Positions 4,135-41,125 of a DNA stretch of 41,125 nucleotides are shown here, one piece after another. A program made the position numbers and the translations under genes. How positions within the stretch are numbered: position 1 is the stretch's first letter; each line of letters opens with the position of its first letter. The notes beneath the pieces are model-generated. The model saw nothing but the letters and a program-made list of their open reading frames with translations. It made no database searches and was not told where the DNA came from. The stretch comes from a virus: the IMG/VR virus record IMGVR_UViG_3300039286_000350, positions 66,984-108,108 of that record. One strand, 5' to 3'.

Positions 4135-5373
4135 CTACTCACGACCCTCGAGAGCGGCAAGCTCAGCCTCAAGATCTGTGGTGTCCTTCTGTTTGAAAGA
4201 AGGGGTGGCACCAGTTGCCTGTGTGGGTACTGGTACGCGCTCATCGGCAGGAGGCGGTACAGCAGAATCAGGTTGGGGCATTACTGTTCCATCGGTCAAC
4301 ATCATTAGGCGATATAGACCCGTCAGGAAGAACGTTCTCGGTGCTGAGGATGAATACTTAACCCGGTCGGCCATCTCCCAAGTCACCTTGATCGCCTGCT
4401 CAACAGTCGTCGGGTTCATGACATCGGCGAAGGAGGCAATTAGGTCGTTCTCAGACCCAGATCTCTGAACGTCTGCACCCATTTGGTACCGTAGTACATC
4501 ACGGTACCAATCAGTGATAGCCCGTACCACCAGCCCAAACTCGGTCGTTCTCTCCAAAGTTGTTAGGAGGACGCGCTCCAATCCGGGGGCATCTCTGGCA
4601 AGGACCTTCTCCATGATGGAGAGGAGCTCAGTACCTGAGACAACGCCGAGGGTCTGAGCACAGAGGTCTGCGGTGAGTTCCACAGATCCATGTGCGGTGA
4701 CGAGTTGATCCAAATGCGTGAGGCTGTCGCGGAGCGAACCGTCGGCATATCGAGAGATAATCTCAGCAGCATCAGGAGTAAGATCAACTCCCTCAGACTC
4801 AGCGACGTATCGCAGACGAGCATTAACATCGCTCTCAGTATGACGCCGGAAGTCAAGGGTGATCGACCGGCTGTGGATCGTAGCCGGTATTTTCTCGGGG
4901 TTGGTGGTAGCGAGGATGAAGACGACATGAGATGGGGGCTCCTCCAAAATCTTAAGCAGGGCCTCGAAAGCGTCACGAGACAGCGAGTGAACCTCGTCAA
5001 TGATGAACACTCGTTTCTCATAGGTCGGAGAATACAATCCTCGTTGTCGTAGGTCGCGAACATGGGCGACCGATCCATGACTTGGGCCGTCAATCTCTAC
5101 CACATCGGGGTTCTTGAACGCCAGAGCAGACGTACAAGAGTTGCACTCAAGGCAAGGGTTTCCATTCTCCTGCTTCTCACAATTGAGAGCCATTGCGAAG
5201 ATGCGCGCCGCAGACGTCTTGCCCGATCCTGCTACGCCGCAGAATATGTAAGAATGGAAAACACGACCATCCTCTAGGGACTTCCGAAGTACCAGGACCG
5301 CATGTTCCTGACCAACTAGGTCGGTCCAGTCGCGTGGTCTATATTTAAGGGGAAGCGGCTCGTAATCTGCCAT
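4135..5373 (-). CDS. dnaX: DNA polymerase III gamma/tau-like clamp loader ATPase (gamma-length)
   Basis: LKYRP..W.DLVGQ, Walker A GVAGSGKT, Zn module C..C..C..C, IIDEVH, LLKILEEPP, SRS. True start taken as MADYEPL at 5373, not 5559. Confidence 0.93.
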   Translation of the reverse strand: MADYEPLPLKYRPRDWTDLVGQEHAVLVLRKSLEDGRVFHSYIFCGVAGSGKTSAARIFAMALNCEKQENGNPCLECNSCTSALAFKNPDVVEIDGPSHGSVAHVRDLRQRGLYSPTYEKRVFIIDEVHSLSRDAFEALLKILEEPPSHVVFILATTNPEKIPATIHSRSITLDFRRHTESDVNARLRYVAESEGVDLTPDAAEIISRYADGSLRDSLTHLDQLVTAHGSVELTADLCAQTLGVVSGTELLSIMEKVLARDAPGLERVLLTTLERTTEFGLVVRAITDWYRDVLRYQMGADVQRSGSENDLIASFADVMNPTTVEQAIKVTWEMADRVKYSSSAPRTFFLTGLYRLMMLTDGTVMPQPDSAVPPPADERVPVPTQATGATPSFKQKDTTDLEAELAALEGRE

Positions 5374-10270: not shown

Positions 10271-10789
10271 TCAACTAGGCCATGGGGATTCTGGAGTATC
10301 TCCTGGAGCCGGGGCAGAGTCAATTGGTTTGGAAACCGGGAGTCGGGGCGGTCCTTCCTCGGCGTCGTCGCTGAACTCGGGAGCGGGAGGCTCGGGCCTG
10401 TCCGTGGGCGGAACTCTCGCAGGTGGTGGGGATTGCGGCAGATCAACCTTCTCGCGCGCGGCTAGCTCCCCACGGTTCCGTACTTCTGTTTCAATAGCTC
10501 TCACATGACCTTCGTACCGGTTAAGGTCAGCAGAGGGTTTCGTTCGATTCACTCGTTTCCTAGCCTGCTCAAGAGCACGGTCTAGCTCCTCGTCGGACAT
10601 GCCCGACAAAGACACTCCTCTCTTGCGATCTAGCGGTACAGCAGTGAGGGTCGCCTTCTTTTGTGCGGGTGGTTTGTTTGGTGGTCGAGGAGAGCGGTCA
10701 CGCTCACGTTGCTCAGGGGTCCGATCTCCCATAATACCCAAGGCACGAGCTGCGAGCTTCCTAGTTTTCGAGGAATAACGTTTAGTCAT
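10271..10789 (-). CDS. Hypothetical protein, basic N-terminus and Pro-rich tail
   Basis: ATGA overlap with the upstream gene. Confidence 0.7.
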   Translation of the reverse strand: MTKRYSSKTRKLAARALGIMGDRTPEQRERDRSPRPPNKPPAQKKATLTAVPLDRKRGVSLSGMSDEELDRALEQARKRVNRTKPSADLNRYEGHVRAIETEVRNRGELAAREKVDLPQSPPPARVPPTDRPEPPAPEFSDDAEEGPPRLPVSKPIDSAPAPGDTPESPWPS

Positions 10790-11352
10790 GCAGCCACCCG
10801 CGGATCAAGCAGACGCTCATTCATCAGCCTTCGCATCACAACATTGACTTCATAATCAGCTGATTCCAAATCGAAGACCTTGCAGATCGCCCGCTCCATG
10901 ATCAGATACATTGCCTCCTCAGAGTGTCCCGTTGGGATCACAATCCTGGTCTTTCGTCTATCTCTCCGAGCTATGGCTACTGCTGCAACATCATTTCGAT
11001 GCTTCTCGAACAGGTGGCGAATGTCCCTCAAGACCTCGCGCCAGGTCACACAATCCCAAAACTTATGGCCCCACTCGGGGCCAGGATACGCAGGGAACAA
11101 ATGAGGTTTGATTGGTGAACGGTGGTTCATCCCTCGCCGTTCTAGCTCAGGAACCACCATATCATCATGGTATTCAATCAGCGCAGATCGCTTACCATGG
11201 AAAGGTTTAGCTTGAGGTCCATTCGACCAGCCGGACGGTTTTCCACGCTCGAAGTGTTTATAGAGCACAGAAAGACAAATATGGGTCTCATTGTGCTGAG
11301 CGAGGAGACGCCTGTTGTCTAGGCACCTCATGGGAAGTCTCCAGATTCTTAT
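10786..11352 (-). CDS. Pyrimidine-dimer DNA glycosylase / DenV-like protein
   Basis: (M)RIW.LP...LD.RRLLAQHNE.H and EL.RRGMNH.SP match the T4 endonuclease V-like family. Start proposed at ATA 11352; the ORF track gives TTG 11394. Confidence 0.75.
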   Translation of the reverse strand: MRIWRLPMRCLDNRRLLAQHNETHICLSVLYKHFERGKPSGWSNGPQAKPFHGKRSALIEYHDDMVVPELERRGMNHRSPIKPHLFPAYPGPEWGHKFWDCVTWREVLRDIRHLFEKHRNDVAAVAIARRDRRKTRIVIPTGHSEEAMYLIMERAICKVFDLESADYEVNVVMRRLMNERLLDPRVAA

Positions 11353-11873
11353 GAGAGTGCCCTTTCCTTCTTTGCCAAAGCCGCCAAGGTACAATCCTCG
11401 TACAGCAATCTGAGCAAAGGGTCAGGGTTCGCCACTCTCACCGAAACGGTGTGACGCTGCTCTCCATGAACGGTCGTCTCATGGTCGAAACGCTCGCAGA
11501 ACTCAGCAAACGCATCAGCAATCTCCATCTGTCGAGTGTTGACAACCAGGCGTAGCCGCTTGTGTCCACGATCAAAGTCAACACAACCATCACCATCGAT
11601 CATCCCACGCCAGTAGTGCCTACGTAAATGAGGGTTAGTCCTGAACACATGAGGATGAATCAGACCGGGCCGTTCGAAAGGGAAAGTCACACCTAGCCGG
11701 CCTTGAGTATATTCCACAACTGGAAGATCCCAAAGCTGACCAATCGCATGTATCAGCGACTGATCCGTTACTTGGATGAGACGGCATTTACTACCCAACG
11801 TCTCACCATCAGCTACAAGAAGGCCTCGGACGTAAGCCTCAGTTGGAGTTCCGATCCTCATGGGGATTAACAA
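11349..11873 (-). CDS. Free-standing double-motif LAGLIDADG endonuclease-like protein
   Basis: Two motifs: AYVRGLLVADG and HYWRGMIDGDG. Confidence 0.8.
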   Translation of the reverse strand: MLIPMRIGTPTEAYVRGLLVADGETLGSKCRLIQVTDQSLIHAIGQLWDLPVVEYTQGRLGVTFPFERPGLIHPHVFRTNPHLRRHYWRGMIDGDGCVDFDRGHKRLRLVVNTRQMEIADAFAEFCERFDHETTVHGEQRHTVSVRVANPDPLLRLLYEDCTLAALAKKERALS

Positions 11874-14177: not shown

Positions 14178-17100
14178 TTAATGAGCCGAGAGGAGAACGC
14201 CTTCGCGCTTGTGTAGCTCTCTCAGACAGAAGTCTGTTGAAACCGGCTCGTCAAACAGGTTTATCTCAATAGGCCGTTCCGTAACACCGCAAGTCGGGCG
14301 GAAGAAGTCCTCCTGAGAGTCATCGACCTTTAGGTAAGAATCGACGCGGCGGGCAGGGATCGAATATATTTTGCTCATCGCTTTCGGGAAGAGAGCACCG
14401 TACATATCGTACGGTGAGAGCCTGTTTTTCAGGATCATGCTCACCATGACCGAGGTCCCTGACTTGTGCGCCCACAGATCGTGGATGAACGGACGAGCGT
14501 TAATCTCCTCTCGTTCGACACCCATGAATCCCTCGGAGCGTAGCTCAACAAGGAACTCCTCTGAGTCAAGGGCGGCACTGAGACGGGAGACAACTAGATC
14601 CTCCTCCTCAGCATCGAACGTCATCTCATAGTGGGACATGTCGGCGACAGATCTTACTCCGACCATTCCAGTCGTGTAGCTCTTCGCTCCGAGGACCTCC
14701 CAGTGAGGTAGGAGACCTGACTCGCGCATCTCTTTGAGAAGAACATCCATATCGACCATGTCGAAGAAGCGGGCGTCGATATAGTCGGTTCCATATAGGT
14801 GGTTGCGGAATGGGATGTTGTCCGAGGCAAACTGGACAGACCGCTTGTCAACCGGAGTATCTAGCTGGTATAGAGCACGTCGGAAGTAGAATTTCCAGTA
14901 CTCGTTCTCCGTGAAACGTCTGTTGGCAGGAGTAGATACCTTGAAACGTATCCGCTGGACGTTGCCGCGCTGCTTGATGATTTTCACGTTTTTGATGTCT
15001 ACTTCAGGATCCTCATTCTCATGGAGCTTGTGACGAAGACCGTGGTCGAATTTGTCACATACCCCGCAAAGGTCACAAAGCTGGTCGCACTTAGTAGTCT
15101 GCACCGCATTCTGGAAATCGAGGTACCTCTTCCATAGATACTGTTTGGTGACCGCCACATTGACGAAGTCCCAAGGAAGAATCTCGGTGTAAGGCTTCTC
15201 GTGGAGGAAGACGTCCCACACAGTCTCAGTTTCCTCCTCCCCATCCGCGTTGATGAATATGTTGGGGACGAAGTCCGGGAACAGCTGGTTGAGTTTCTCC
15301 TCCAGCTTGTGTCTAGTTCCCTTTGGAGTAGATCCGTAGTGAACCATGTCTTCCACAGTCACCAACCATTTAATGATCGGCCAGATCCTACGGTCCGCGA
15401 GGTGCAAGAGCTGCATAAGATAGGCCTCATCGACCTTGGCCCCAGAACCTAGACGGAAGGAGATTCCGAGAGCCTTCAAGGCTGGGAACACGTCCATCAA
15501 AGAGCGTTTATCAAGGGTCGGACGGCAGAACTGCATGGGAGTAAAGGATTGGATTACGAGAGGTGTCCAGGAAAACTTGATATCGCATTTGGCACCAATC
15601 TCGTCCCTCAGCTTGGCTGCTTTTGCTGCAAGCTCTACAACCTCCATCACATCTGCATGAGTCTCGCCAGGGATGTTAGCAATCATGAAGTACTTGATCT
15701 TTCGGTACCCCGCTCGCAGCAAGTGGGAGGTTGCGGTCAGGAGCTCGTCCTCCGTGCAGTTCTTGTTTAGCATGTCACGGATACGCTGTGAATTACCCTC
15801 GACTCCTAGTGAGCAAGTGTCATTGCCCATGAATCCGGTTAGCATCACAAAGTTTTCATCCTCAGCCATCTCGTCAACACGCTGAGAGATCAGCTTGATC
15901 TGGTCGCTGTGCTCCTCCAAGGTCCTGCGCATGAGCTGTTTCTTCTGGGTGTAGGAAGACGCGCAGAAAGCAGACGGGAGGACGTTGAGAGAGCCGGTCT
16001 CAGTCATCAACTCGCCGAGAGCCGCAGCTGCCTTGTCAGCAGACTGCTCTCGATAAGGCATCCAGGTCATTCCCTCCTGACAGAAGGAGCACTTGGCATT
16101 GCATCCTCTAGATATCAGTAGGGTCCCAGCAGACATGCCTGGGTCGTGGTAGGACACTACCTGATCCATATGAATGTAGTCCTCGTTCAGGTCTTTAATG
16201 TAGACCCGATCGACTGTGAGAGGAAGGAACGCGTCGATCAGCTCATCAATCTCGCCAGTTCCGTCCGTTAGCGACGTGATCTCACTCTCGGAGACGTGCT
16301 CTTTGATAAACGCGTAGTTCCGCAAGCGCTCTTTGATGACCGGATGGGCACGTCCATCCTCACCTTGCTCAAAATATGTCTCCTCGTGGAAGGCGGGAAT
16401 GTAGATCCCAGGGATCCCTCGCTTGCCTTTCTTCGCTTCCGCCTCAGTCCGATAATCGAGGGTTGTCGCCATGTACCACATGGTGTCCCACTTCGACATT
16501 CCTTTCTCCAAGCAGAGAGCCTGCGCTCGGAGGACGTTAGACAGGTGAGGCTCGGCGTCCCCGATGTACATCCAATCGTACATCGCGTAGAACGGCTCAG
16601 GTGAGAAGGAGTGGCATCCTCCACGTCCGATGATCGGCCAGCTGTCATCTCGTTCGGTGTACTCAATGGGGATACCAGTCATCTCAAGCATCTTGATGAT
16701 GTTGATATCTACACCGCAGTAGGAGCCCGAGAACATACACAGATCGAATTCCTTGATATCCCGCTTGGTCTCGAGGGTAAACATCGGTAGACCGCGCTTG
16801 CGGAAGCGATCCAAGTCGCTTCGGGACATTGGGAAATAGGATCGCTCGCAGACGAAGGAAGGGTTCTGATTGTTGACGAGTGAGTAGACCAGAGGGATGC
16901 CCAAGTTGCCGGCAAGACCAGTATAGGAAGAGCCTCCAATCGCGGCAACGCGGAAGGGTGCGAGTGCCCAGGACTCATCTGACTTCTGCACAGTGCCGAT
17001 CTCGTCGCCGTAATAAGCCGAGGGCACCGTCATGTGGTGCATGTTCTCGTCCATCCACTCTGCAATACGTTCCCTAGACCAGAAACCCTCCATCTTCGAT

Positions 17101-17261
17101 GGTCTTGGCTCGTCTAGGAGCTTGTTCCAAAGAGCGTCTGGATTCCTGTCTGCGTCGTAAAGTTTGCCGTATCTGTTTGCGGTGGTGATGGGATCAGCAC
17201 CATCGGAGACGAGGGTTTGTGTTGTCTGGACCTCGTCTAGCTCAAGTGTAGTGCCGGCCAT
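14178..17261 (-). CDS. B12-binding radical SAM protein (TIGR03960-like) fused to a TIGR03936/DUF2344-like domain
   Basis: P.AY.GDE, GNLG..L.Y, ERSY.P, LP.FTLE...I.EFD, GG...SPEP, IGDAE; SRGCNAKCSFC; LPWD...C...CDLCGVC; then VQRIRF...RF.......FRRAL. Confidence 0.88.
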   Translation of the reverse strand: MAGTTLELDEVQTTQTLVSDGADPITTANRYGKLYDADRNPDALWNKLLDEPRPSKMEGFWSRERIAEWMDENMHHMTVPSAYYGDEIGTVQKSDESWALAPFRVAAIGGSSYTGLAGNLGIPLVYSLVNNQNPSFVCERSYFPMSRSDLDRFRKRGLPMFTLETKRDIKEFDLCMFSGSYCGVDINIIKMLEMTGIPIEYTERDDSWPIIGRGGCHSFSPEPFYAMYDWMYIGDAEPHLSNVLRAQALCLEKGMSKWDTMWYMATTLDYRTEAEAKKGKRGIPGIYIPAFHEETYFEQGEDGRAHPVIKERLRNYAFIKEHVSESEITSLTDGTGEIDELIDAFLPLTVDRVYIKDLNEDYIHMDQVVSYHDPGMSAGTLLISRGCNAKCSFCQEGMTWMPYREQSADKAAAALGELMTETGSLNVLPSAFCASSYTQKKQLMRRTLEEHSDQIKLISQRVDEMAEDENFVMLTGFMGNDTCSLGVEGNSQRIRDMLNKNCTEDELLTATSHLLRAGYRKIKYFMIANIPGETHADVMEVVELAAKAAKLRDEIGAKCDIKFSWTPLVIQSFTPMQFCRPTLDKRSLMDVFPALKALGISFRLGSGAKVDEAYLMQLLHLADRRIWPIIKWLVTVEDMVHYGSTPKGTRHKLEEKLNQLFPDFVPNIFINADGEEETETVWDVFLHEKPYTEILPWDFVNVAVTKQYLWKRYLDFQNAVQTTKCDQLCDLCGVCDKFDHGLRHKLHENEDPEVDIKNVKIIKQRGNVQRIRFKVSTPANRRFTENEYWKFYFRRALYQLDTPVDKRSVQFASDNIPFRNHLYGTDYIDARFFDMVDMDVLLKEMRESGLLPHWEVLGAKSYTTGMVGVRSVADMSHYEMTFDAEEEDLVVSRLSAALDSEEFLVELRSEGFMGVEREEINARPFIHDLWAHKSGTSVMVSMILKNRLSPYDMYGALFPKAMSKIYSIPARRVDSYLKVDDSQEDFFRPTCGVTERPIEINLFDEPVSTDFCLRELHKREGVLLSAH

Positions 17262-18321: not shown

Positions 18322-19440
18322 TCAATCGTCTGGACGTAGCTGGAGGAGAACAGACTTGAGGCCAGGCTCCTCCATAAATATTGAGGACCGTCGTTTCGGT
18401 AGGTCCTCCCCAATCTTGAAGGTAACCTGTTTTGCGGGGCTCATCTCAAGTGCGTCGGCGAGGAATTTATGATTGATCATTAGCGTACGACCAGCCGTTG
18501 CGGTTGTCGTGCAAGGCAAGGTCTCAACAGCCAACTCTCCATGTTGATCCTGAGCCATCACTTTGACCTCTTTCGGTTTGTCACCGTTGGTCGGCTCAAG
18601 GATCTGCAGGTTGAGCTGTTTCCTCTCCTCGTCTGCCGCAAGAGCGATGCGTTTGATCGCTGCAAGCAGGTCAGTCTTGTCAAGCGTCAGTTTCTGGTCA
18701 TTGCCAGAAGCTGGTTTGAGGATCATCTCCTCAACGTCAGGGAACTCCTCGTAGAGACGCTGAGAGGAAAACGTGTCCGCGCCAATCTGGAAGAGGAGGT
18801 GATTCTTCTTGAGCTCAACGCTAACCTCCTCGACCTCAGTCCTATTCAGTAGACGAACGAGGTTGTTAACCGCAAAGATCGGGATCTGCACTCCCTCGAG
18901 CCCCTCGAAGTCCGCAATCTGCAGACGGGAGCCGTCAGAGGCCATCGCACGTTTCCCGTCGAAGGCAATAAGCATTAGATATGGGCGCATCTCGTCGGTT
19001 GATGCAGCGTACTGCACCTTCCCAATGGCATCGATAAGCTTCTCTCGTTTGACTTTCTTCGCACTCTCAGACTCAAAGCGCGGAACCTCGGGGTAGTCCT
19101 CTGGGTCGAGGATGTTAACCTGCCACTTGGCTCGGCCAGCTTTGACAGTGACCTGGTTCTCTTCCAGTTTGAAGTCAATGTCTCCATCCTCAGCAGATCT
19201 AACGATGGCCTGCAGCTTCTGCGCAGGAACACAGATAGCGCCATCGTCCTTGACCTGTACCCCACCACGAATCTTAGCAATGGAACCGAGACTGAGGTCA
19301 GTGGACAGGATCCGCACCTGATCAGGATCAGCCTCAATGTTGAACGTCTTGAGCAACGGGTCGTTGTCTTTGGACGACACCGTTGCAGCAGCCTTGTCAA
19401 GGGCCGTCAAGAAGGCCGCTTTCTTGATCACAAAGTGCAT
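18322..19440 (-). CDS. dnaN: DNA polymerase III beta sliding clamp
   Basis: 372 aa; STDL, DYP, ASTDEMRPYL, ASDG.RL, FPD motifs; three-domain length. Confidence 0.93.
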   Translation of the reverse strand: MHFVIKKAAFLTALDKAAATVSSKDNDPLLKTFNIEADPDQVRILSTDLSLGSIAKIRGGVQVKDDGAICVPAQKLQAIVRSAEDGDIDFKLEENQVTVKAGRAKWQVNILDPEDYPEVPRFESESAKKVKREKLIDAIGKVQYAASTDEMRPYLMLIAFDGKRAMASDGSRLQIADFEGLEGVQIPIFAVNNLVRLLNRTEVEEVSVELKKNHLLFQIGADTFSSQRLYEEFPDVEEMILKPASGNDQKLTLDKTDLLAAIKRIALAADEERKQLNLQILEPTNGDKPKEVKVMAQDQHGELAVETLPCTTTATAGRTLMINHKFLADALEMSPAKQVTFKIGEDLPKRRSSIFMEEPGLKSVLLQLRPDD

Positions 19441-29926: not shown

Positions 29927-30191
29927 CCAGCTTAGGGTCACCTTCTGGGTGCTGTATAAACACAGCGGCATCATCTTGCGGATTCTCTTTGAAAGCTGTA
30001 TAAACGATCCATCCATCTGATGTTTCACTCATAATCAGCCAGTAAGGAGAAGGTACAACGTTTGCCACTATATCCACCAAGGAGACTGTCTCGTTCACCC
30101 CAGAACGGGGAGCCGCGACCATGAACACACCAAGGGGTTTATGAGAACGAGACTGCAACCTTCTCGGCAGCAGTCTCCGCAGACGGCTCAT
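29901..30191 (-). CDS. Hypothetical protein
   Basis: Fills the gap after polA; start uncertain. Confidence 0.55.
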   Translation of the reverse strand: MSRLRRLLPRRLQSRSHKPLGVFMVAAPRSGVNETVSLVDIVANVVPSPYWLIMSETSDGWIVYTAFKENPQDDAAVFIQHPEGDPKLVAGFSTGG

Positions 30192-32370
30192 CTTGCTTCG
30201 CCTTTCGCAGGTCGATTAGGAATCGTAGAATCATCTGATAATCAGGTGGAGTCATGGTTAGGGTTGAAAACTTCTCGCCCCCTACTTTCAGGAAGTGAAC
30301 AGTCATATCGCCGCTGTGATCTGTTTGTTTGAGGAGTTCCACGAACTCACGTCGTTTCTCCTCGGGCATATCAGGAACAGCAATCTCTTTCTCGACTGGT
30401 TCAGCTTTGGTCTTTGGAATATCGGCCTCATCAATCCCAAGCCAATCGTTGAGCTCCTGCATGTCGAGCCAGTTTGGTCCAACCTTGGCGTCAATCTCAA
30501 GGGGCACATAACCCTCAATCGGGAAACACATTATCCCTTTGAGCCACTCGAAGAATGCCGCCAAGTCAAGGTCTGCTGGAACCTCGAAGAGCACCGAGTC
30601 ATGGATGGTAAGAACCATCTTGCAATCAGGGTAGGGGCAGTCATCCTTTCGCAAAGCTTTCCAGATACGCACCAAGGCGATTTTCATGATGTCAGCAGCA
30701 GTTCCCTGGACGATCGTGTTGATCGCTGAACGTTCTCCGAAGGCGACCTCCGAGGGAATCCGTGAGTTGAGCCAGGGAAGAGGGCGCCAGCGCTGGAAAT
30801 GAGTGTGGACTCCGCCCATCTGCTTCGCCTTTGCAACAGTCCGCTGGGTCCAGGCAGTTGCGTCCGGCATGGCTGCGAAGAAGTCGTCGAGGATTCTCTG
30901 CGCCTCATCCAAAGAGTAATCTGTGCGCATTGCCAGACCCTCTGGTTTCATGCCATAGATGGGACCAAAGTTCATGGTCTTTCCCATCTGGCGGCGATCA
31001 TCACCCTTGTCCGTGATCTGTTCGCGGAAGATCACAGATGCAGTCTTGAGGTGGAGATCCTCGCCAGTCTCGAACGCATCTATCAGATAGTCCTCACCAG
31101 ACTCGCTAGCATAAACCCGGAGCTCGATCTGTGAGAAGTCAGCTTCGAAGAAGAGCTTACCCGGTCGGGCAGGAAAGGCGCGGCGGGCCGGGGCCTCCTT
31201 CGACCTGGGGATCTGTTGCATATTTGGGGACCCACAAGCCAATCGTCCGGTCGGGACCACCGTACTCTTGAACGAACAATGGATCGCGCCAGTTGATGGG
31301 TTCACATATTCGTGGAGCGTGGTCAGGAAGTTATTGTGAAGGGTTTTGAACTGCTTGTAGTCACGAATAGCCTGGGCACCGGCCGCAATCTCGGGATCCG
31401 AAGACTCAGCGAACCGCCCAATCGTATTCTTGTCCGTACCGCCGAGCCCATCTTTCTTCTTCTTTCCCATGATGGGCCAACTGAGCGTGTTGTAAATATG
31501 ACGCGCCAGCTGCTTGTGGCTGTCAATGTTGATCGACTGGTCCATCTTGAGTTTTTCATAAGCGACTTTCCGTCGCACTTTGAGGTGGACGCCAACTTTG
31601 TCACGTACATCGAACAAAGTCTCTGGATCCAGCAAAATGCCGCGCATCTCCATCTCAAGGAGGACCACAAGGCTCGCCATGTCAATTCTGTAGGAGAAGG
31701 AATCGTTTAGGGCCTGATCCATTCCCTTTTCGTATAGACGGAGCGTAATGTCGGCGTCGCAACAAGCGTACTTGCGAGCAATCTCGGGCTCCAGCTCAGC
31801 AAAGGTCCCACCACCTTCGAAGTATTTCTTGAGAGAGGGCATTTCAAGTTTGAGATACTTGAGCGACATCATCTCAAGTGCGAAACCCTGCGGTTGAGGA
31901 GCACCGCGCTTGGCAGGTCGGTTCTCGGAAAAGTCCTTTGCCTCGTTCACATCTTTCAGATACCAGATCACTGCAACGTCATCGGTTATGTTTACCATAT
32001 CTTCCCACTCAAGGGGCCACTCACCAGCAACCGATCTCATCTCAGCTCGAGACTGTTGACACACATTCCGCTTCTTGCTTATCGCGAGGATGAACTTCTT
32101 GACTAGATCAACGTCAAGGTTGGGGATGTGTTCCATCCGAACAGGAATGACCCATCCTGATCCTGGCTTAGTGCAAAAGGAGAAAGCATGGACTACGTGG
32201 CCGTTGTGAGTAGGTTTGAACTCAGAGTCCCATGCCACGACAGGAGCGTCAACTATCTCCTTAAACGCCTCCACGGCGTTTTGAGTCGTGACCACCTTAT
32301 AATCAGCAGTCTCGACCCAAGCTGGGAAACGAATCTCGGGAGCAGTTGCGAAGAAGGATTCCTGTGGCAA
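30139..32370 (-). CDS. polA: Family A DNA polymerase (3'-5' exo plus polymerase, no 5'-3' exo)
   Basis: ExoI WDSE, ExoIII YACCD, TGRL...PNMQQIP, motif A ADFSQIELR, motif B RQMGKTMNFG.IYG, motif C HDS. Confidence 0.95.
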   Translation of the reverse strand: MPQESFFATAPEIRFPAWVETADYKVVTTQNAVEAFKEIVDAPVVAWDSEFKPTHNGHVVHAFSFCTKPGSGWVIPVRMEHIPNLDVDLVKKFILAISKKRNVCQQSRAEMRSVAGEWPLEWEDMVNITDDVAVIWYLKDVNEAKDFSENRPAKRGAPQPQGFALEMMSLKYLKLEMPSLKKYFEGGGTFAELEPEIARKYACCDADITLRLYEKGMDQALNDSFSYRIDMASLVVLLEMEMRGILLDPETLFDVRDKVGVHLKVRRKVAYEKLKMDQSINIDSHKQLARHIYNTLSWPIMGKKKKDGLGGTDKNTIGRFAESSDPEIAAGAQAIRDYKQFKTLHNNFLTTLHEYVNPSTGAIHCSFKSTVVPTGRLACGSPNMQQIPRSKEAPARRAFPARPGKLFFEADFSQIELRVYASESGEDYLIDAFETGEDLHLKTASVIFREQITDKGDDRRQMGKTMNFGPIYGMKPEGLAMRTDYSLDEAQRILDDFFAAMPDATAWTQRTVAKAKQMGGVHTHFQRWRPLPWLNSRIPSEVAFGERSAINTIVQGTAADIMKIALVRIWKALRKDDCPYPDCKMVLTIHDSVLFEVPADLDLAAFFEWLKGIMCFPIEGYVPLEIDAKVGPNWLDMQELNDWLGIDEADIPKTKAEPVEKEIAVPDMPEEKRREFVELLKQTDHSGDMTVHFLKVGGEKFSTLTMTPPDYQMILRFLIDLRKAKQDEPSAETAAEKVAVSFS

Positions 32371-33344: not shown

Positions 33345-34304
33345 TCACGCTGCCAATCTCCGGATCAGTAGATCATTGACACCAGGGCGTCCAGCATCTT
33401 TGGATGCATCAGCAAGTATTGGAAAGATATTGATTATGTCGTTCGGGGACCAACGCTTGCTCGCCTCGAACAAACCGTGGACAATGAATCCTGGAAGTCG
33501 GAGAGCAAGAGCCGCCTCCTTGGGGGACCGACCACCCTTCCGCATCTCAGCCATAAACTGTAGGAGAGATGTAAACTTGCGATCAAGGGCGCCAACCAGT
33601 TGGTTGGTTGCAATCTCATCAGAGGACAGAGCAAGAGCCTTCTTTGCGTCACGCATCGCGATAGCATCAGTTAGGTCGAAGACCGTTGCTTCTTGCCTTC
33701 CAGAAAGATACTTCCGAATCTCCTCTGGAGTGGTGGCATCTGCTAATTTTAAGACCTTTAGGAGAGATATAAGGTCAGCAGGAACAGTCCCTACAGCGTA
33801 GACAATTTCTCTAGCAATTTCATCATCCCAGCCAGTCATAGCCATGATCAACTCACAAGCTGACTGCTCATCAACATTGCGAAGGACAACCCAATATCCT
33901 TTGCGAATTATCGCCTGGGCAAGGTTGTTCTTAGTCAGAGGATTGGGCTCTGACTGGTGGATGGACATGACAAGGACCAAATCCCTGGGGAAAGACTCCA
34001 GCAAGGAAGTCAAGGACTTCACTCCAGCATGGTCCTTGTTCTCGTTGGGGTCCAGCCAGTGAACCTCAGTGGCCACCACAAGAAGGTGCTTGGAATCCAT
34101 AGGATCACGTCGACAAGCCTCTGCCAGTTCCATATGTGTTGGTTCATGAAGACGGACAAGATCAACAACAGGGTTAACCTGCTTCTTCCACCGGTCAGCT
34201 ACGGTGTAAAACATGGAAAGACGATCGTGTTCCCGTCCTCCTGCGAACAGGAAGAGACGGCCTTCCTTCTTTGGCCAACGCGACAAGAACTGGGTAAGGT
34301 TCAT
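33345..34304 (-). CDS. holA: DNA polymerase III delta-like clamp loader subunit
   Basis: 319 aa; LFLFAG, VG.....L...L..L, TVFDLTDAI, final D...K...L pattern typical of HolA. Confidence 0.75.
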   Translation of the reverse strand: MNLTQFLSRWPKKEGRLFLFAGGREHDRLSMFYTVADRWKKQVNPVVDLVRLHEPTHMELAEACRRDPMDSKHLLVVATEVHWLDPNENKDHAGVKSLTSLLESFPRDLVLVMSIHQSEPNPLTKNNLAQAIIRKGYWVVLRNVDEQSACELIMAMTGWDDEIAREIVYAVGTVPADLISLLKVLKLADATTPEEIRKYLSGRQEATVFDLTDAIAMRDAKKALALSSDEIATNQLVGALDRKFTSLLQFMAEMRKGGRSPKEAALALRLPGFIVHGLFEASKRWSPNDIINIFPILADASKDAGRPGVNDLLIRRLAA

Positions 34305-34307
34305 CGC

Positions 34308-34478
34308 TTAAACCTTCTCGCCAAGTTTCCCTTTCTTCTTCTGGAAGAATTCTCGGGTTGGACGGAGAACCTCGGCACAGGAGCCACAGACAAAACGCCC
34401 AGGAAGGGCCTCGTTTGGGCATAACACTCCCCGCCGATCACGACCCCCGCATCTCCGCTTCTTTGTTTTGACGTTCAC
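34308..34478 (-). CDS. Small Cys4 Zn-finger protein (56 aa)
   Basis: Not in the track. GTG start; MNVKTKKRRCGGRDRRGVLCPNEALPGRFVCGSC...; ends just before holA. Confidence 0.55.
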   Translation of the reverse strand: MNVKTKKRRCGGRDRRGVLCPNEALPGRFVCGSCAEVLRPTREFFQKKKGKLGEKV

Positions 34479-35052
34479 GTCTGCGTATGGCTAATGTTAA
34501 AAGGAGTGACTTAACTACTACTCGGGGCGAGACTTTCCTATTGAGGTACTCAAGGTAGAACTGTGACAGGTTTGCAATATCAAGGTCACCGTAGGTGACA
34601 CCCCACGCCCATAAGGCCATGAGCTGTTGACGTGTTTCATTCACGTCTGAATGGCGGTCCGCCTCTCGTATAATAGCCAAGGCGTCTCCGTTTTCCACAT
34701 AGCGTACTAAACGAGATACATCCTCATGGTTTTCTTTCGGCAGTGACTCGCGTACAACATGAGATCGACTCTTAATTGTCCGTGGTAGAGAATCAGTTGA
34801 CGGTGCGTAAAGGTGAAAGGCTACATAAGGTGGAGGCTCCTCCAGAACCTTCAAGAGAACATTCCAGCTTTCTTCTGATACTCTGTGCGCAGAAGGAATG
34901 TGAATCACTGTTGCGTCCCCTTCCCACGGTCGTCGCCGAGTTTCGTTAACCAACTCGCGAGCATCTGCCACAGCCAAATTGTGACCTGCAACAGATGTCT
35001 CTCCCTTCTTTACATGAGGGGCTGCTGATGTGAGATGCAAGATCGTCTGCAT
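34438..35052 (-). CDS. holB: DNA polymerase III delta'-like subunit (short)
   Basis: AH.V.....N.LLKVLEEPP, LPRTIKSRS; no Walker A; 204 aa. Confidence 0.75.
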   Translation of the reverse strand: MQTILHLTSAAPHVKKGETSVAGHNLAVADARELVNETRRRPWEGDATVIHIPSAHRVSEESWNVLLKVLEEPPPYVAFHLYAPSTDSLPRTIKSRSHVVRESLPKENHEDVSRLVRYVENGDALAIIREADRHSDVNETRQQLMALWAWGVTYGDLDIANLSQFYLEYLNRKVSPRVVVKSLLLTLAIRRRERQNKEAEMRGS

Positions 35053-35128: not shown

Positions 35129-35815
35129 CTAGCCGGAGACAGCGAGGGCATCAGCTCCTGTCCGATGAAGCAAACCCTGTTCGGTGGCCCACTCACGTAG
35201 TGCTTGGACCTCAGGAATCTGACGGATCAGGTCAACACAGATAGAAATCGTACCCTCTGAGAGTTTCATCTCGGATGCAATCTGATCCTGCCTGAATCCC
35301 TCTCTGAGCAATCGCCAGACCCAGCGTAGGTCCCTTCGACCTCTAATGGGCTGAGCATGAACCGCCTCTTCTGCACGACGGACCAAGTCTTCGTACTCAA
35401 TCCTGTCTTGCTCATTGAACGACAGCTCTTTTGTAGTCTCCGGGTCAACGATGCCGACAACAAAGAATTCACTGGCCTGTGACTGGATGCTATAGGCCTT
35501 GGCCGTTGGCGTTCGGTTGCTTCTTGACAGGAACTGCAGGCAACGGCGTTTCGTGAACTCCCACATAAACGTCTTGGGCGACGACGTGTCGGGGTTATAG
35601 ATCTGCATGTAACTAACCCCGTTCTTGCCCTCGAAGAACTGACGCCATACCTCCTGCGACAGATCGTCAGGGTCGCCAAGTGACCTCGGCACATACTTCT
35701 TGATCACCGCCCGGACCGTTAGGTCATGTTCTTCGTAAAACTGTTGGAAGCTGATCCCGGAGGGATTGTCACAATCTCCGCCCCTGGTCATAGCGCGTGT
35801 TTGCGCACCATTCAT
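35129..35815 (-). CDS. Phage sigma-70 family (ECF-like) sigma factor
   Basis: Region 2 F..FY......V......DPDDLSQEVW...Y......KTF.W; region 4 HTH EGFRQDQIASEMKLSEGTIS. Confidence 0.8.
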   Translation of the reverse strand: MNGAQTRAMTRGGDCDNPSGISFQQFYEEHDLTVRAVIKKYVPRSLGDPDDLSQEVWRQFFEGKNGVSYMQIYNPDTSSPKTFMWEFTKRRCLQFLSRSNRTPTAKAYSIQSQASEFFVVGIVDPETTKELSFNEQDRIEYEDLVRRAEEAVHAQPIRGRRDLRWVWRLLREGFRQDQIASEMKLSEGTISICVDLIRQIPEVQALREWATEQGLLHRTGADALAVSG

Positions 35816-40562: not shown

Positions 40563-41125
40563 TCCTCAGTCTCGCCACACTGGTATCCACACTCTGTACA
40601 TTCAATACTCAACTCAGTAAACTCAGTAACGACCTGTCCCTTTTTCCGCCACAGACCTCGCACCTTGGCCTTCTCAACGCCCATCAAGACCTCCCTAGTC
40701 AGCCATATGTCTACGATTCCGTCTGTTCTATCATAGACTGTTTGACATGTCGTGCTGGGACAAATGATCTTGAATGGTACATCCTCCTCTTCCTCATCAG
40801 GATCATGTCCAACGATTGCTGGCAGGAACTGCTTGTCGCTATATCCACAAACCGGGCATACGAGCGGTATCTCAGTTTGTTCAGTCTGGCCCGCGAGCGG
40901 GGCGTAGTCATAATCGACGGCATGTTCGAATTGCAGGAACCTACAACCTTTAGGACATTCTATAATAAACTGAGGTTGATCATGATAATCGCCCTCAGCA
41001 TCATCCAACTCTAGCTTCTCATCATCTGAAAAGTAAGGAGCAACAGGACAACCCTTCTCGTGGGGCAGTTTCTTGCACTCACATTCAGGAGGTGCATAAG
41101 ATTTCTGAGAAGCGATCTCAGTCAC
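40559..41125 (-). CDS. Multi-Zn-ribbon protein (start at window edge)
   Basis: CEC..H...C, CPKGC, CPVC, CPSTTC, CTEC. Confidence 0.7.
   Translation of the reverse strand: MTEIASQKSYAPPECECKKLPHEKGCPVAPYFSDDEKLELDDAEGDYHDQPQFIIECPKGCRFLQFEHAVDYDYAPLAGQTEQTEIPLVCPVCGYSDKQFLPAIVGHDPDEEEEDVPFKIICPSTTCQTVYDRTDGIVDIWLTREVLMGVEKAKVRGLWRKKGQVVTEFTELSIECTECGYQCGETED

Follow-up and report, generated by a model that had tools for sequence, protein, structure and literature searches.

How is a phage family A DNA polymerase held on its template when the genes around it encode a bacterial-type sliding clamp and clamp loader? The question is raised by a 41,125-nucleotide stretch of viral DNA (hereafter the window), positions 66984-108108 and thus the 3′ part of the 108,108-nt IMG/VR record IMGVR_UViG_3300039286_000350, which is classed as a provirus. 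The window, in which all credible genes lie on the minus strand, encodes a 743-residue PolA together with a DnaN beta clamp, a DnaX loader ATPase and two smaller loader subunits. The explanation favoured here, with moderate confidence, is that this proofreading PolA serves as the replicase in a phage replisome that is largely self-sufficient, and that it is held on the phage beta-type ring by a peptide at its N-terminus. The polymerase and its peptide are placed as follows.

30139-32370, minus strand: PolA, a family A DNA polymerase of 743 amino acids with a 3′-5′ exonuclease and no 5′ nuclease (PF00476 and PF01612)
32350-32364, minus strand: QESFF, a clamp-binding-like pentapeptide at PolA residues 3-7, marked by conservation in the clade and by predicted disorder

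The catalytic core is well defined. PF00476 matches residues 257-635 of PolA with 307.4 bits (cut-off 34.3), and PF01612, the 3′-5′ exonuclease domain, matches residues 25-215 just above its threshold (24.3 against 23.6). In a 63-sequence alignment the exonuclease residues D48, E50, D131, Y201 and D205 and the polymerase residues D411, R460, K464, Y472, H590 and D591 are invariant or nearly so, and the AlphaFold2 (AF2) model has a mean predicted local distance difference test (pLDDT) score of 88.5. An earlier note on this DNA, made from the letters alone, had described PolA as lacking a 5′-3′ exonuclease; PF02739, the 5′-3′ nuclease domain, indeed has no match in PolA or elsewhere in the record. 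The reading frame opens with a TTG codon at 32370, GAGGA lying 6 nt upstream, and this codon lines up with the ATG of an ortholog that is 72% identical and begins MPQETFF. PolA does not reach the equivalog cut-offs for bacterial Pol I (NF004397, 358 against 720; TIGR00593, 309 against 600), and a scan of viral contigs with the PolA alignment returned no relatives. The top tblastn matches among phage records were set aside as ordinary bacterial-type Pol I in unverified records. As a separate observation, motif C (residues 590-592, 30601-30609 on the minus strand) reads HDS in nine of nine clade members, where the usual form is HDE.

The N-terminal peptide, MPQESFFATAPE, begins with MPQESFF as the earlier note had read it, QESFF being encoded at 32364-32350. 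All nine clade PolAs, which are 51-72% identical, carry Q[ED][ST][FY][FLIV] at aligned residues 3-7, and Q3 is invariant. Residues 1-9 have pLDDT values below 50 and are predicted to be disordered, yet column identity within the motif (0.76) is on a par with that of the catalytic domain (0.75), whereas other disordered segments reach only 0.35-0.37. QESFF thus has the hallmark of a clamp client, a Gln-led hydrophobic pentapeptide in a flexible and conserved segment, with positions 2 and 4 off consensus. For comparison, PolA was considered in three unrelated phages, each with genes for DnaN and/or DnaX: Dp-1, a Nodularia phage and Vibrio phage MAR10. Dp-1 gp71 begins MAQKGLF and so contains a canonical Qxx[LM]F (QKGLF), and in the Nodularia phage residues 9-13 of PolA read QLDMF. 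Given the composition of the proteome studied here, Qxx[LMF]F is expected by chance in the first 15 residues of about 0.18% of proteins, so that its presence in two of three comparison lineages corresponds to P ~1e-5. At the level of sequence, a Gln-led peptide of apparent clamp-binding type shows itself as recurrent at the N-terminus of PolA across unrelated lineages (the clade, Dp-1 and the Nodularia phage).

A skeptical reading would make QESFF a structural or translational feature that has no partner and resembles a clamp motif by coincidence. The proteome contains 11 instances of Qxx[LMFI]F, close to the number expected by chance, and residues 10-22 of PolA (among them P11, P16 and W18) are conserved as well, packing on the exonuclease domain in the AF2 model. 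This reading is nevertheless very improbable, for it leaves unexplained both why a segment predicted to be disordered is conserved like a catalytic one and why similar peptides recur independently at the N-termini of the Dp-1 and Nodularia PolAs.

The ring and the loader that such a peptide would require are encoded at four places in the window.

18322-19440, minus strand: DnaN beta sliding clamp of 372 amino acids, matched by PF00712, PF02767 and PF02768 and by TIGR00663
4135-5373, minus strand: DnaX clamp-loader ATPase of 412 amino acids from its ATG, in which domains I-III are followed by a Pro-rich linker and, at the C-terminus, a conserved helix (TIGR02397)
33345-34304, minus strand: HolA-like (delta) loader subunit of 319 amino acids (PF21694), also beside PolA in a 139-kb relative
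34438-35052, minus strand: short delta′-like AAA+ loader subunit of 204 amino acids (partial PF13177; phrog_5846, 'clamp loader of DNA polymerase')

Two of these genes are exactly what the earlier note took them for. DnaN scores 155.9 with TIGR00663 (cut-off 137.65) and matches solved beta clamps with E-values down to 1.4e-26, while DnaX, confirmed at 412 amino acids, scores 319.5 with TIGR02397 (dnaX_nterm; cut-off 250) over residues 4-346. The note had also listed holA and holB, and here the genes exist but the second name does not hold. The HolA-like protein passes PF21694, a C-terminal domain, with 29.3 against 27 and falls slightly below TIGR01128 (76.7 against 80). Its neighbour matches PF13177 with 54.6 against 27, at profile positions 78-156 only, and falls short of the HolB equivalog TIGR00678 (65.1 against 180.6); its ortholog in the 139-kb relative has 200 amino acids. 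On its sequence, the 204-residue product is best called a delta′-like short clamp-loader subunit. A gene for an extracytoplasmic function (ECF)-type sigma factor lies just upstream of the clamp-loader genes (35129-35815, minus strand).

In bacteria, tau domains IV-V of the full-length loader ATPase bind DnaB and alpha. The match of the phage DnaX to tau models of 567-655 amino acids stops near residue 345, PF12170 finds no tau domains IV-V in it, and the tail that remains is only 65 amino acids long. Across ten of ten clade orthologs, which measure 406-421 amino acids, this tail (4135-4335, minus strand, in the present DnaX) consists of a variable linker rich in Pro, after which come [ST]F and a terminal helix, DLE-EL--L, both of them conserved. 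The loader had been described as gamma-only, and this is right insofar as tau domains IV-V are absent; because the tail keeps a conserved helix, however, DnaX is not a bare gamma either.

Could another polymerase be the replicase that this clamp and loader serve? An identical Logan contig extends the record 46,855 nt past the end of the window, giving a composite of 154,963 nt. The longest contig that bears the 743-residue PolA in the protein database measures 154,964 nt, and that of the 72% relative 155,601 nt. A profile search of the 108-kb record found no match to PF07733 (DnaE/PolC) or PF00136 (PolB). In the 46.9-kb extension, judged from the precomputed Pfam hits of called genes and from open reading frame (ORF) lengths, no hit to a family C or B polymerase is recorded for any called gene, and the longest ORF encodes 505 amino acids. 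The lack of dnaE and polC on which the earlier note had built thus extends beyond the window. Its further statement that PolA is the only polymerase in the window is true but does not carry over to the genome, since the extension contains a second gene of the family.

L002:1945-3201, plus strand, about 8 kb past the window end: second PolA-domain gene, 418 amino acids, polymerase domain alone without an exonuclease (PF00476, 195 bits)

This second PolA has Tyr at the position equivalent to Phe762 of E. coli, and its motif C is HDA. The 743-residue PolA is the sole proofreading polymerase in about 155 kb. The neighbours of the second gene encode a nucleoside phosphorylase, an epimerase, a ferredoxin, an aldolase and an MTR-1-P isomerase-like protein. 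Overall, genes for primase, the second PolA, lysis-type functions and nucleotide metabolism occupy the extension (L002, L004 and L006, from window position 41125 on), which showed no integrase. Since the IMG/VR provirus record stops within phage-like DNA, its provirus boundary is probably a trimming artefact.

The proposed contact between polymerase and ring was examined by predicting the complex of two DnaN chains (87-row alignment) with PolA residues 1-40, next to three controls. The PolA fragment obtained an ipSAE of 0.56, the best control 0.00, and the verdict was 'weak support'. The runs share at least 73% of contacts, and the partner pLDDT is at least 44. The mark used is passed by 58 of 80 solved complexes and by 2 of 110 mismatched pairs; the band at or below 0.60 holds only 7 of the 80 solved complexes among the passes, together with both of the passing mismatches. 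Because complexes of beta clamps with peptides have already been solved, a pass may also reflect likeness to these structures. The earlier proposal that PolA is the replicase, tethered through its N-terminal motif, is partly supported: by the place of PolA as the one proofreading polymerase of a genome with its own helicase, primase, clamp and loader, and by a peptide that is conserved, predicted to be disordered, similar to clamp motifs and recurrent in PolAs of clamp-encoding phages; support from the docking prediction is weak. In the arrangement that we favour, a loader of the DnaX3-delta-delta′ type would put the phage beta-type ring on primed DNA, and the flexible peptide M-P-Q-E-S-F-F would hold PolA on that ring by filling the hydrophobic pocket used by bacterial Qxx[LM]F clients. 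From these features we infer a putative binding of the peptide to the clamp and a processivity of PolA that the clamp would raise.

The genes around PolA bear on whom the clamp serves. Orthologs of PolA, DnaN and DnaX are co-located on contigs of 155.6, 139.1 and 127.3 kb, and the conserved order is ligase, delta′, delta, PolA, RecA, SbcC-N, uracil-DNA glycosylase (UDG), SbcD, PD-(D/E)XK, DnaN, SbcC-C, radical S-adenosylmethionine (SAM) protein and DnaX. The proteins of the clade have no counterpart in the phage collection at 35% identity or more. Also encoded in the present genome are a DnaB-like helicase (486 amino acids; PF03796, 50.9 bits), ligase, RecA, SbcCD and UDG, and pieces of a DnaG-type primase are located in the extension; PF00436, the single-stranded DNA-binding protein (SSB) family, has no match in the record. 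With its own helicase, primase, clamp and loader, the replisome is largely phage-encoded. The primase is apparently split into a Zn-ribbon protein of 177 amino acids and a catalytic-core/Toprim protein of 250 amino acids, whose genes lie about 12 kb apart (L006:6916-7449 and L004:249-1001). One further gene of the conserved block contains a second peptide of the same kind.

14301-14315, minus strand: QEDFF, a second clamp-motif-like peptide, within a radical SAM protein of 1027 amino acids (14178-17261) downstream of dnaN

QEDFF is the sole other QExFF among 261 ORFs. The surrounding peptide, QEDFFRPTC, is kept in three orthologs, and a distant homolog of 908 amino acids, which also adjoins a dnaN, has QFDLFRPTC in its place. 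By its sequence, the peptide would fit a clamp that recognises Q-x-[SDT]-aromatic-hydrophobic peptides, and the radical SAM protein is a possible further clamp client.

Such clients invite the view that the clamp and loader chiefly serve proteins other than PolA, be it the alpha subunit of the host Pol III, drawn to the phage DNA, or enzymes of repair and modification such as the radical SAM protein, ligase and UDG, with PolA working clamp-free or only in gap filling. Phage DnaN genes do stand alone without a polymerase, as in Rhizobium phage RR1-A, and the same point is made in PMC4889955. The radical SAM protein beside dnaN, moreover, has its conserved Q-x-D-[FL]-F, and the linkage of the two genes persists on a distant contig. 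The organisation of the present genome makes this view unlikely all the same. The phage encodes its own helicase and primase, its DnaX lacks the tau domains IV-V needed to hold a host alpha, and the delta and delta′ genes directly adjoin polA in the clade. PolA itself, proofreading and devoid of a 5′ nuclease, is not built like a gap-filling Pol I, and any additional clients are compatible with PolA being a client too.

A different part of the polymerase offers a second candidate for the contact with the clamp.

30142-30453, minus strand: clade-specific C-terminal extension of PolA, whose linker leads to a small predicted beta-alpha-beta-beta-alpha domain (residues 659-726) and on to a disordered tail that ends V-x-F-x

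In T4-type polymerases it is a tail at the C-terminus that binds the clamp. In the present PolA, AF2 models predict an extra folded domain followed by a disordered tail, the extension is conserved within the clade, and the last four residues are more conserved (0.69) than the rest of the tail (0.37). PolA might accordingly use the phage clamp and loader through this domain and the V-x-F-x tail, while the N-terminal peptide binds, say, helicase, primase or SSB. Several observations make this distinctly unlikely: the C-terminal tail has no Gln-type clamp motif, the Dp-1 and Nodularia PolAs lack the extension yet have a canonical N-terminal Qxx[LM]F, and it was the N-terminal fragment, and not a control, that scored with DnaN, if weakly. 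Neither Pfam nor Foldseek (against PDB and BFVD) returns a match for the extension. VIA-align gives it weak matches, the best Z of 4.3 being shared by many unrelated rows; Taq and E. coli Pol III alpha take ranks 1 and 8 there with their C-terminal domains, which bind tau. Matches to protein A, returned by a profile search of PDB sequences, are repeat-inflated and were judged spurious.

Taken together, the conserved DnaX helix and the clade-specific PolA domain make a tau-like tether conceivable, and the DnaX tail may form a small tether with PolA or the helicase as its partner. A bolder version, which we regard as quite doubtful, has a tether of the tau-alpha type rebuilt on a family A polymerase. 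The PolA C-terminal domain would then dock the C-terminal helix of DnaX, coupling polymerase, loader and perhaps helicase as in the bacterial holoenzyme, and the radical SAM enzyme would be a further clamp client at the fork.

Several points weigh against PolA as a replicase tethered by its N-terminal peptide. The motif deviates from QL[SD]LF by its acidic position 2 and its Phe/Tyr at position 4. The MAR10 PolA begins MGFFHQK, with no Gln ahead of FF, and is ambiguous. Across the whole proteome, terminal Qxx-hydrophobic pentapeptides are not enriched (7 observed against 11.3 expected), and the docking score lies within the weak band. The conserved C-terminal domain and tail of PolA could be the real tether, and the genome contains a second PolA gene. 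The ends of the 154,963-nt composite show no overlap with each other, so that the composite may be incomplete and a polymerase gene may be missing from it. Finally, searchable literature yielded no biochemical test, of binding or of processivity, for any phage PolA-beta pair.

The tethered PolA finds close parallels among known systems. The hybrid replisome of the earlier note is not an unrecognised one: the arrangement of PolA, beta clamp and loader is already known, having been described computationally in 2011 and annotated in the Dp-1, MAR10 and Nodularia phages. In Ma-LMM01 and RSL1, Kazlauskas and Venclovas (2011; PMC3201878) found PolA accompanied by polIII-beta and polIII-gamma; they proposed beta as the processivity factor of PolA and pointed to the stimulation of E. 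coli Pol I by beta. A 2016 follow-up described the co-occurrence of polymerase, clamp and loader (PMC4889955). As described in PMC3201878, Ma-LMM01 and RSL1 resemble the present phage in exceeding 150 kb and in combining a DnaX homolog with a family A polymerase and a clamp of bacterial type. In these phages a single loader subunit was detected and the composition of the loader left open (PMC3201878), whereas the present phage adds delta-like and delta′-like genes. DnaX homologs occur in 204 phage records from many groups, and in MAR10 the clamp gene lies directly upstream of polA.

The replication module of Streptococcus phage Dp-1 (NC_015274) provides a close comparison, its record listing gp10 as DnaN, gp17-19 as clamp loader, gp67 as DnaB, gp68 as DnaG, gp69 as an ECF sigma factor and gp71 as PolA. 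Dp-1 shares with the present phage a clamp, a DnaX-type ATPase with two further loader subunits, DnaB, DnaG and an ECF-type sigma factor, and also a RecA/UvsX-like recombinase, a Cas4/PD-(D/E)XK nuclease, a resolvase and a ligase. In both phages PolA combines exonuclease and polymerase without a 5′ nuclease and has Qxx-hydrophobic-F at residues 3-7. The differences are equally clear: Dp-1 has 56.5 kb and a Firmicute host, whereas the present clade measures about 155 kb; gp71, like the Nodularia phage PolA, has no C-terminal extension; and the Dp-1 DnaX, at 341 amino acids, has no tail. The second PolA, the split primase and the radical SAM protein beside dnaN are additions of the present genome. 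The region of Microbacterium phage Magritte was uninformative for comparison.

Compared with the bacterial Pol III holoenzyme (alpha-epsilon, beta2, tau/gamma3-delta-delta′), the present clamp and loader ATPase pass bacterial family cut-offs, and the docking proposed would likewise employ a Gln-led hydrophobic pentapeptide. The polymerase, by contrast, is of family A and unites exonuclease and polymerase in one chain; alpha, epsilon and tau domains IV-V are missing, and delta′ has 204 amino acids. The place of the motif differs too, being the extreme N-terminus in the present PolA and internal or C-terminal in Pol III alpha. T7 gp5-thioredoxin and the PolAs of the T5/SPO1 type are, like the present enzyme, phage family A polymerases that proofread and have no 5′ nuclease. 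They owe their processivity to thioredoxin or to built-in extensions and not to a ring clamp (PMC3201878).

Elsewhere in the window, a gene for a DenV-like pyrimidine-dimer glycosylase adjoins one for a LAGLIDADG homing endonuclease (10786-11873, minus strand).

Because the architecture was predicted in 2011, current views are not overturned. What is gained is that a deep-branching, uncultured clade of ~155-kb phages, with about ten members in public metagenomes, joins the phages in which a family A replicase is combined with a bacterial beta clamp and a loader of several subunits. The clade-specific C-terminal domain of PolA and the DnaX tail are the leads that it offers. The Gln-led peptide at the N-terminus of PolA, in turn, would provide a simple rule, open to testing, for the way in which family A polymerases connect to beta clamps.

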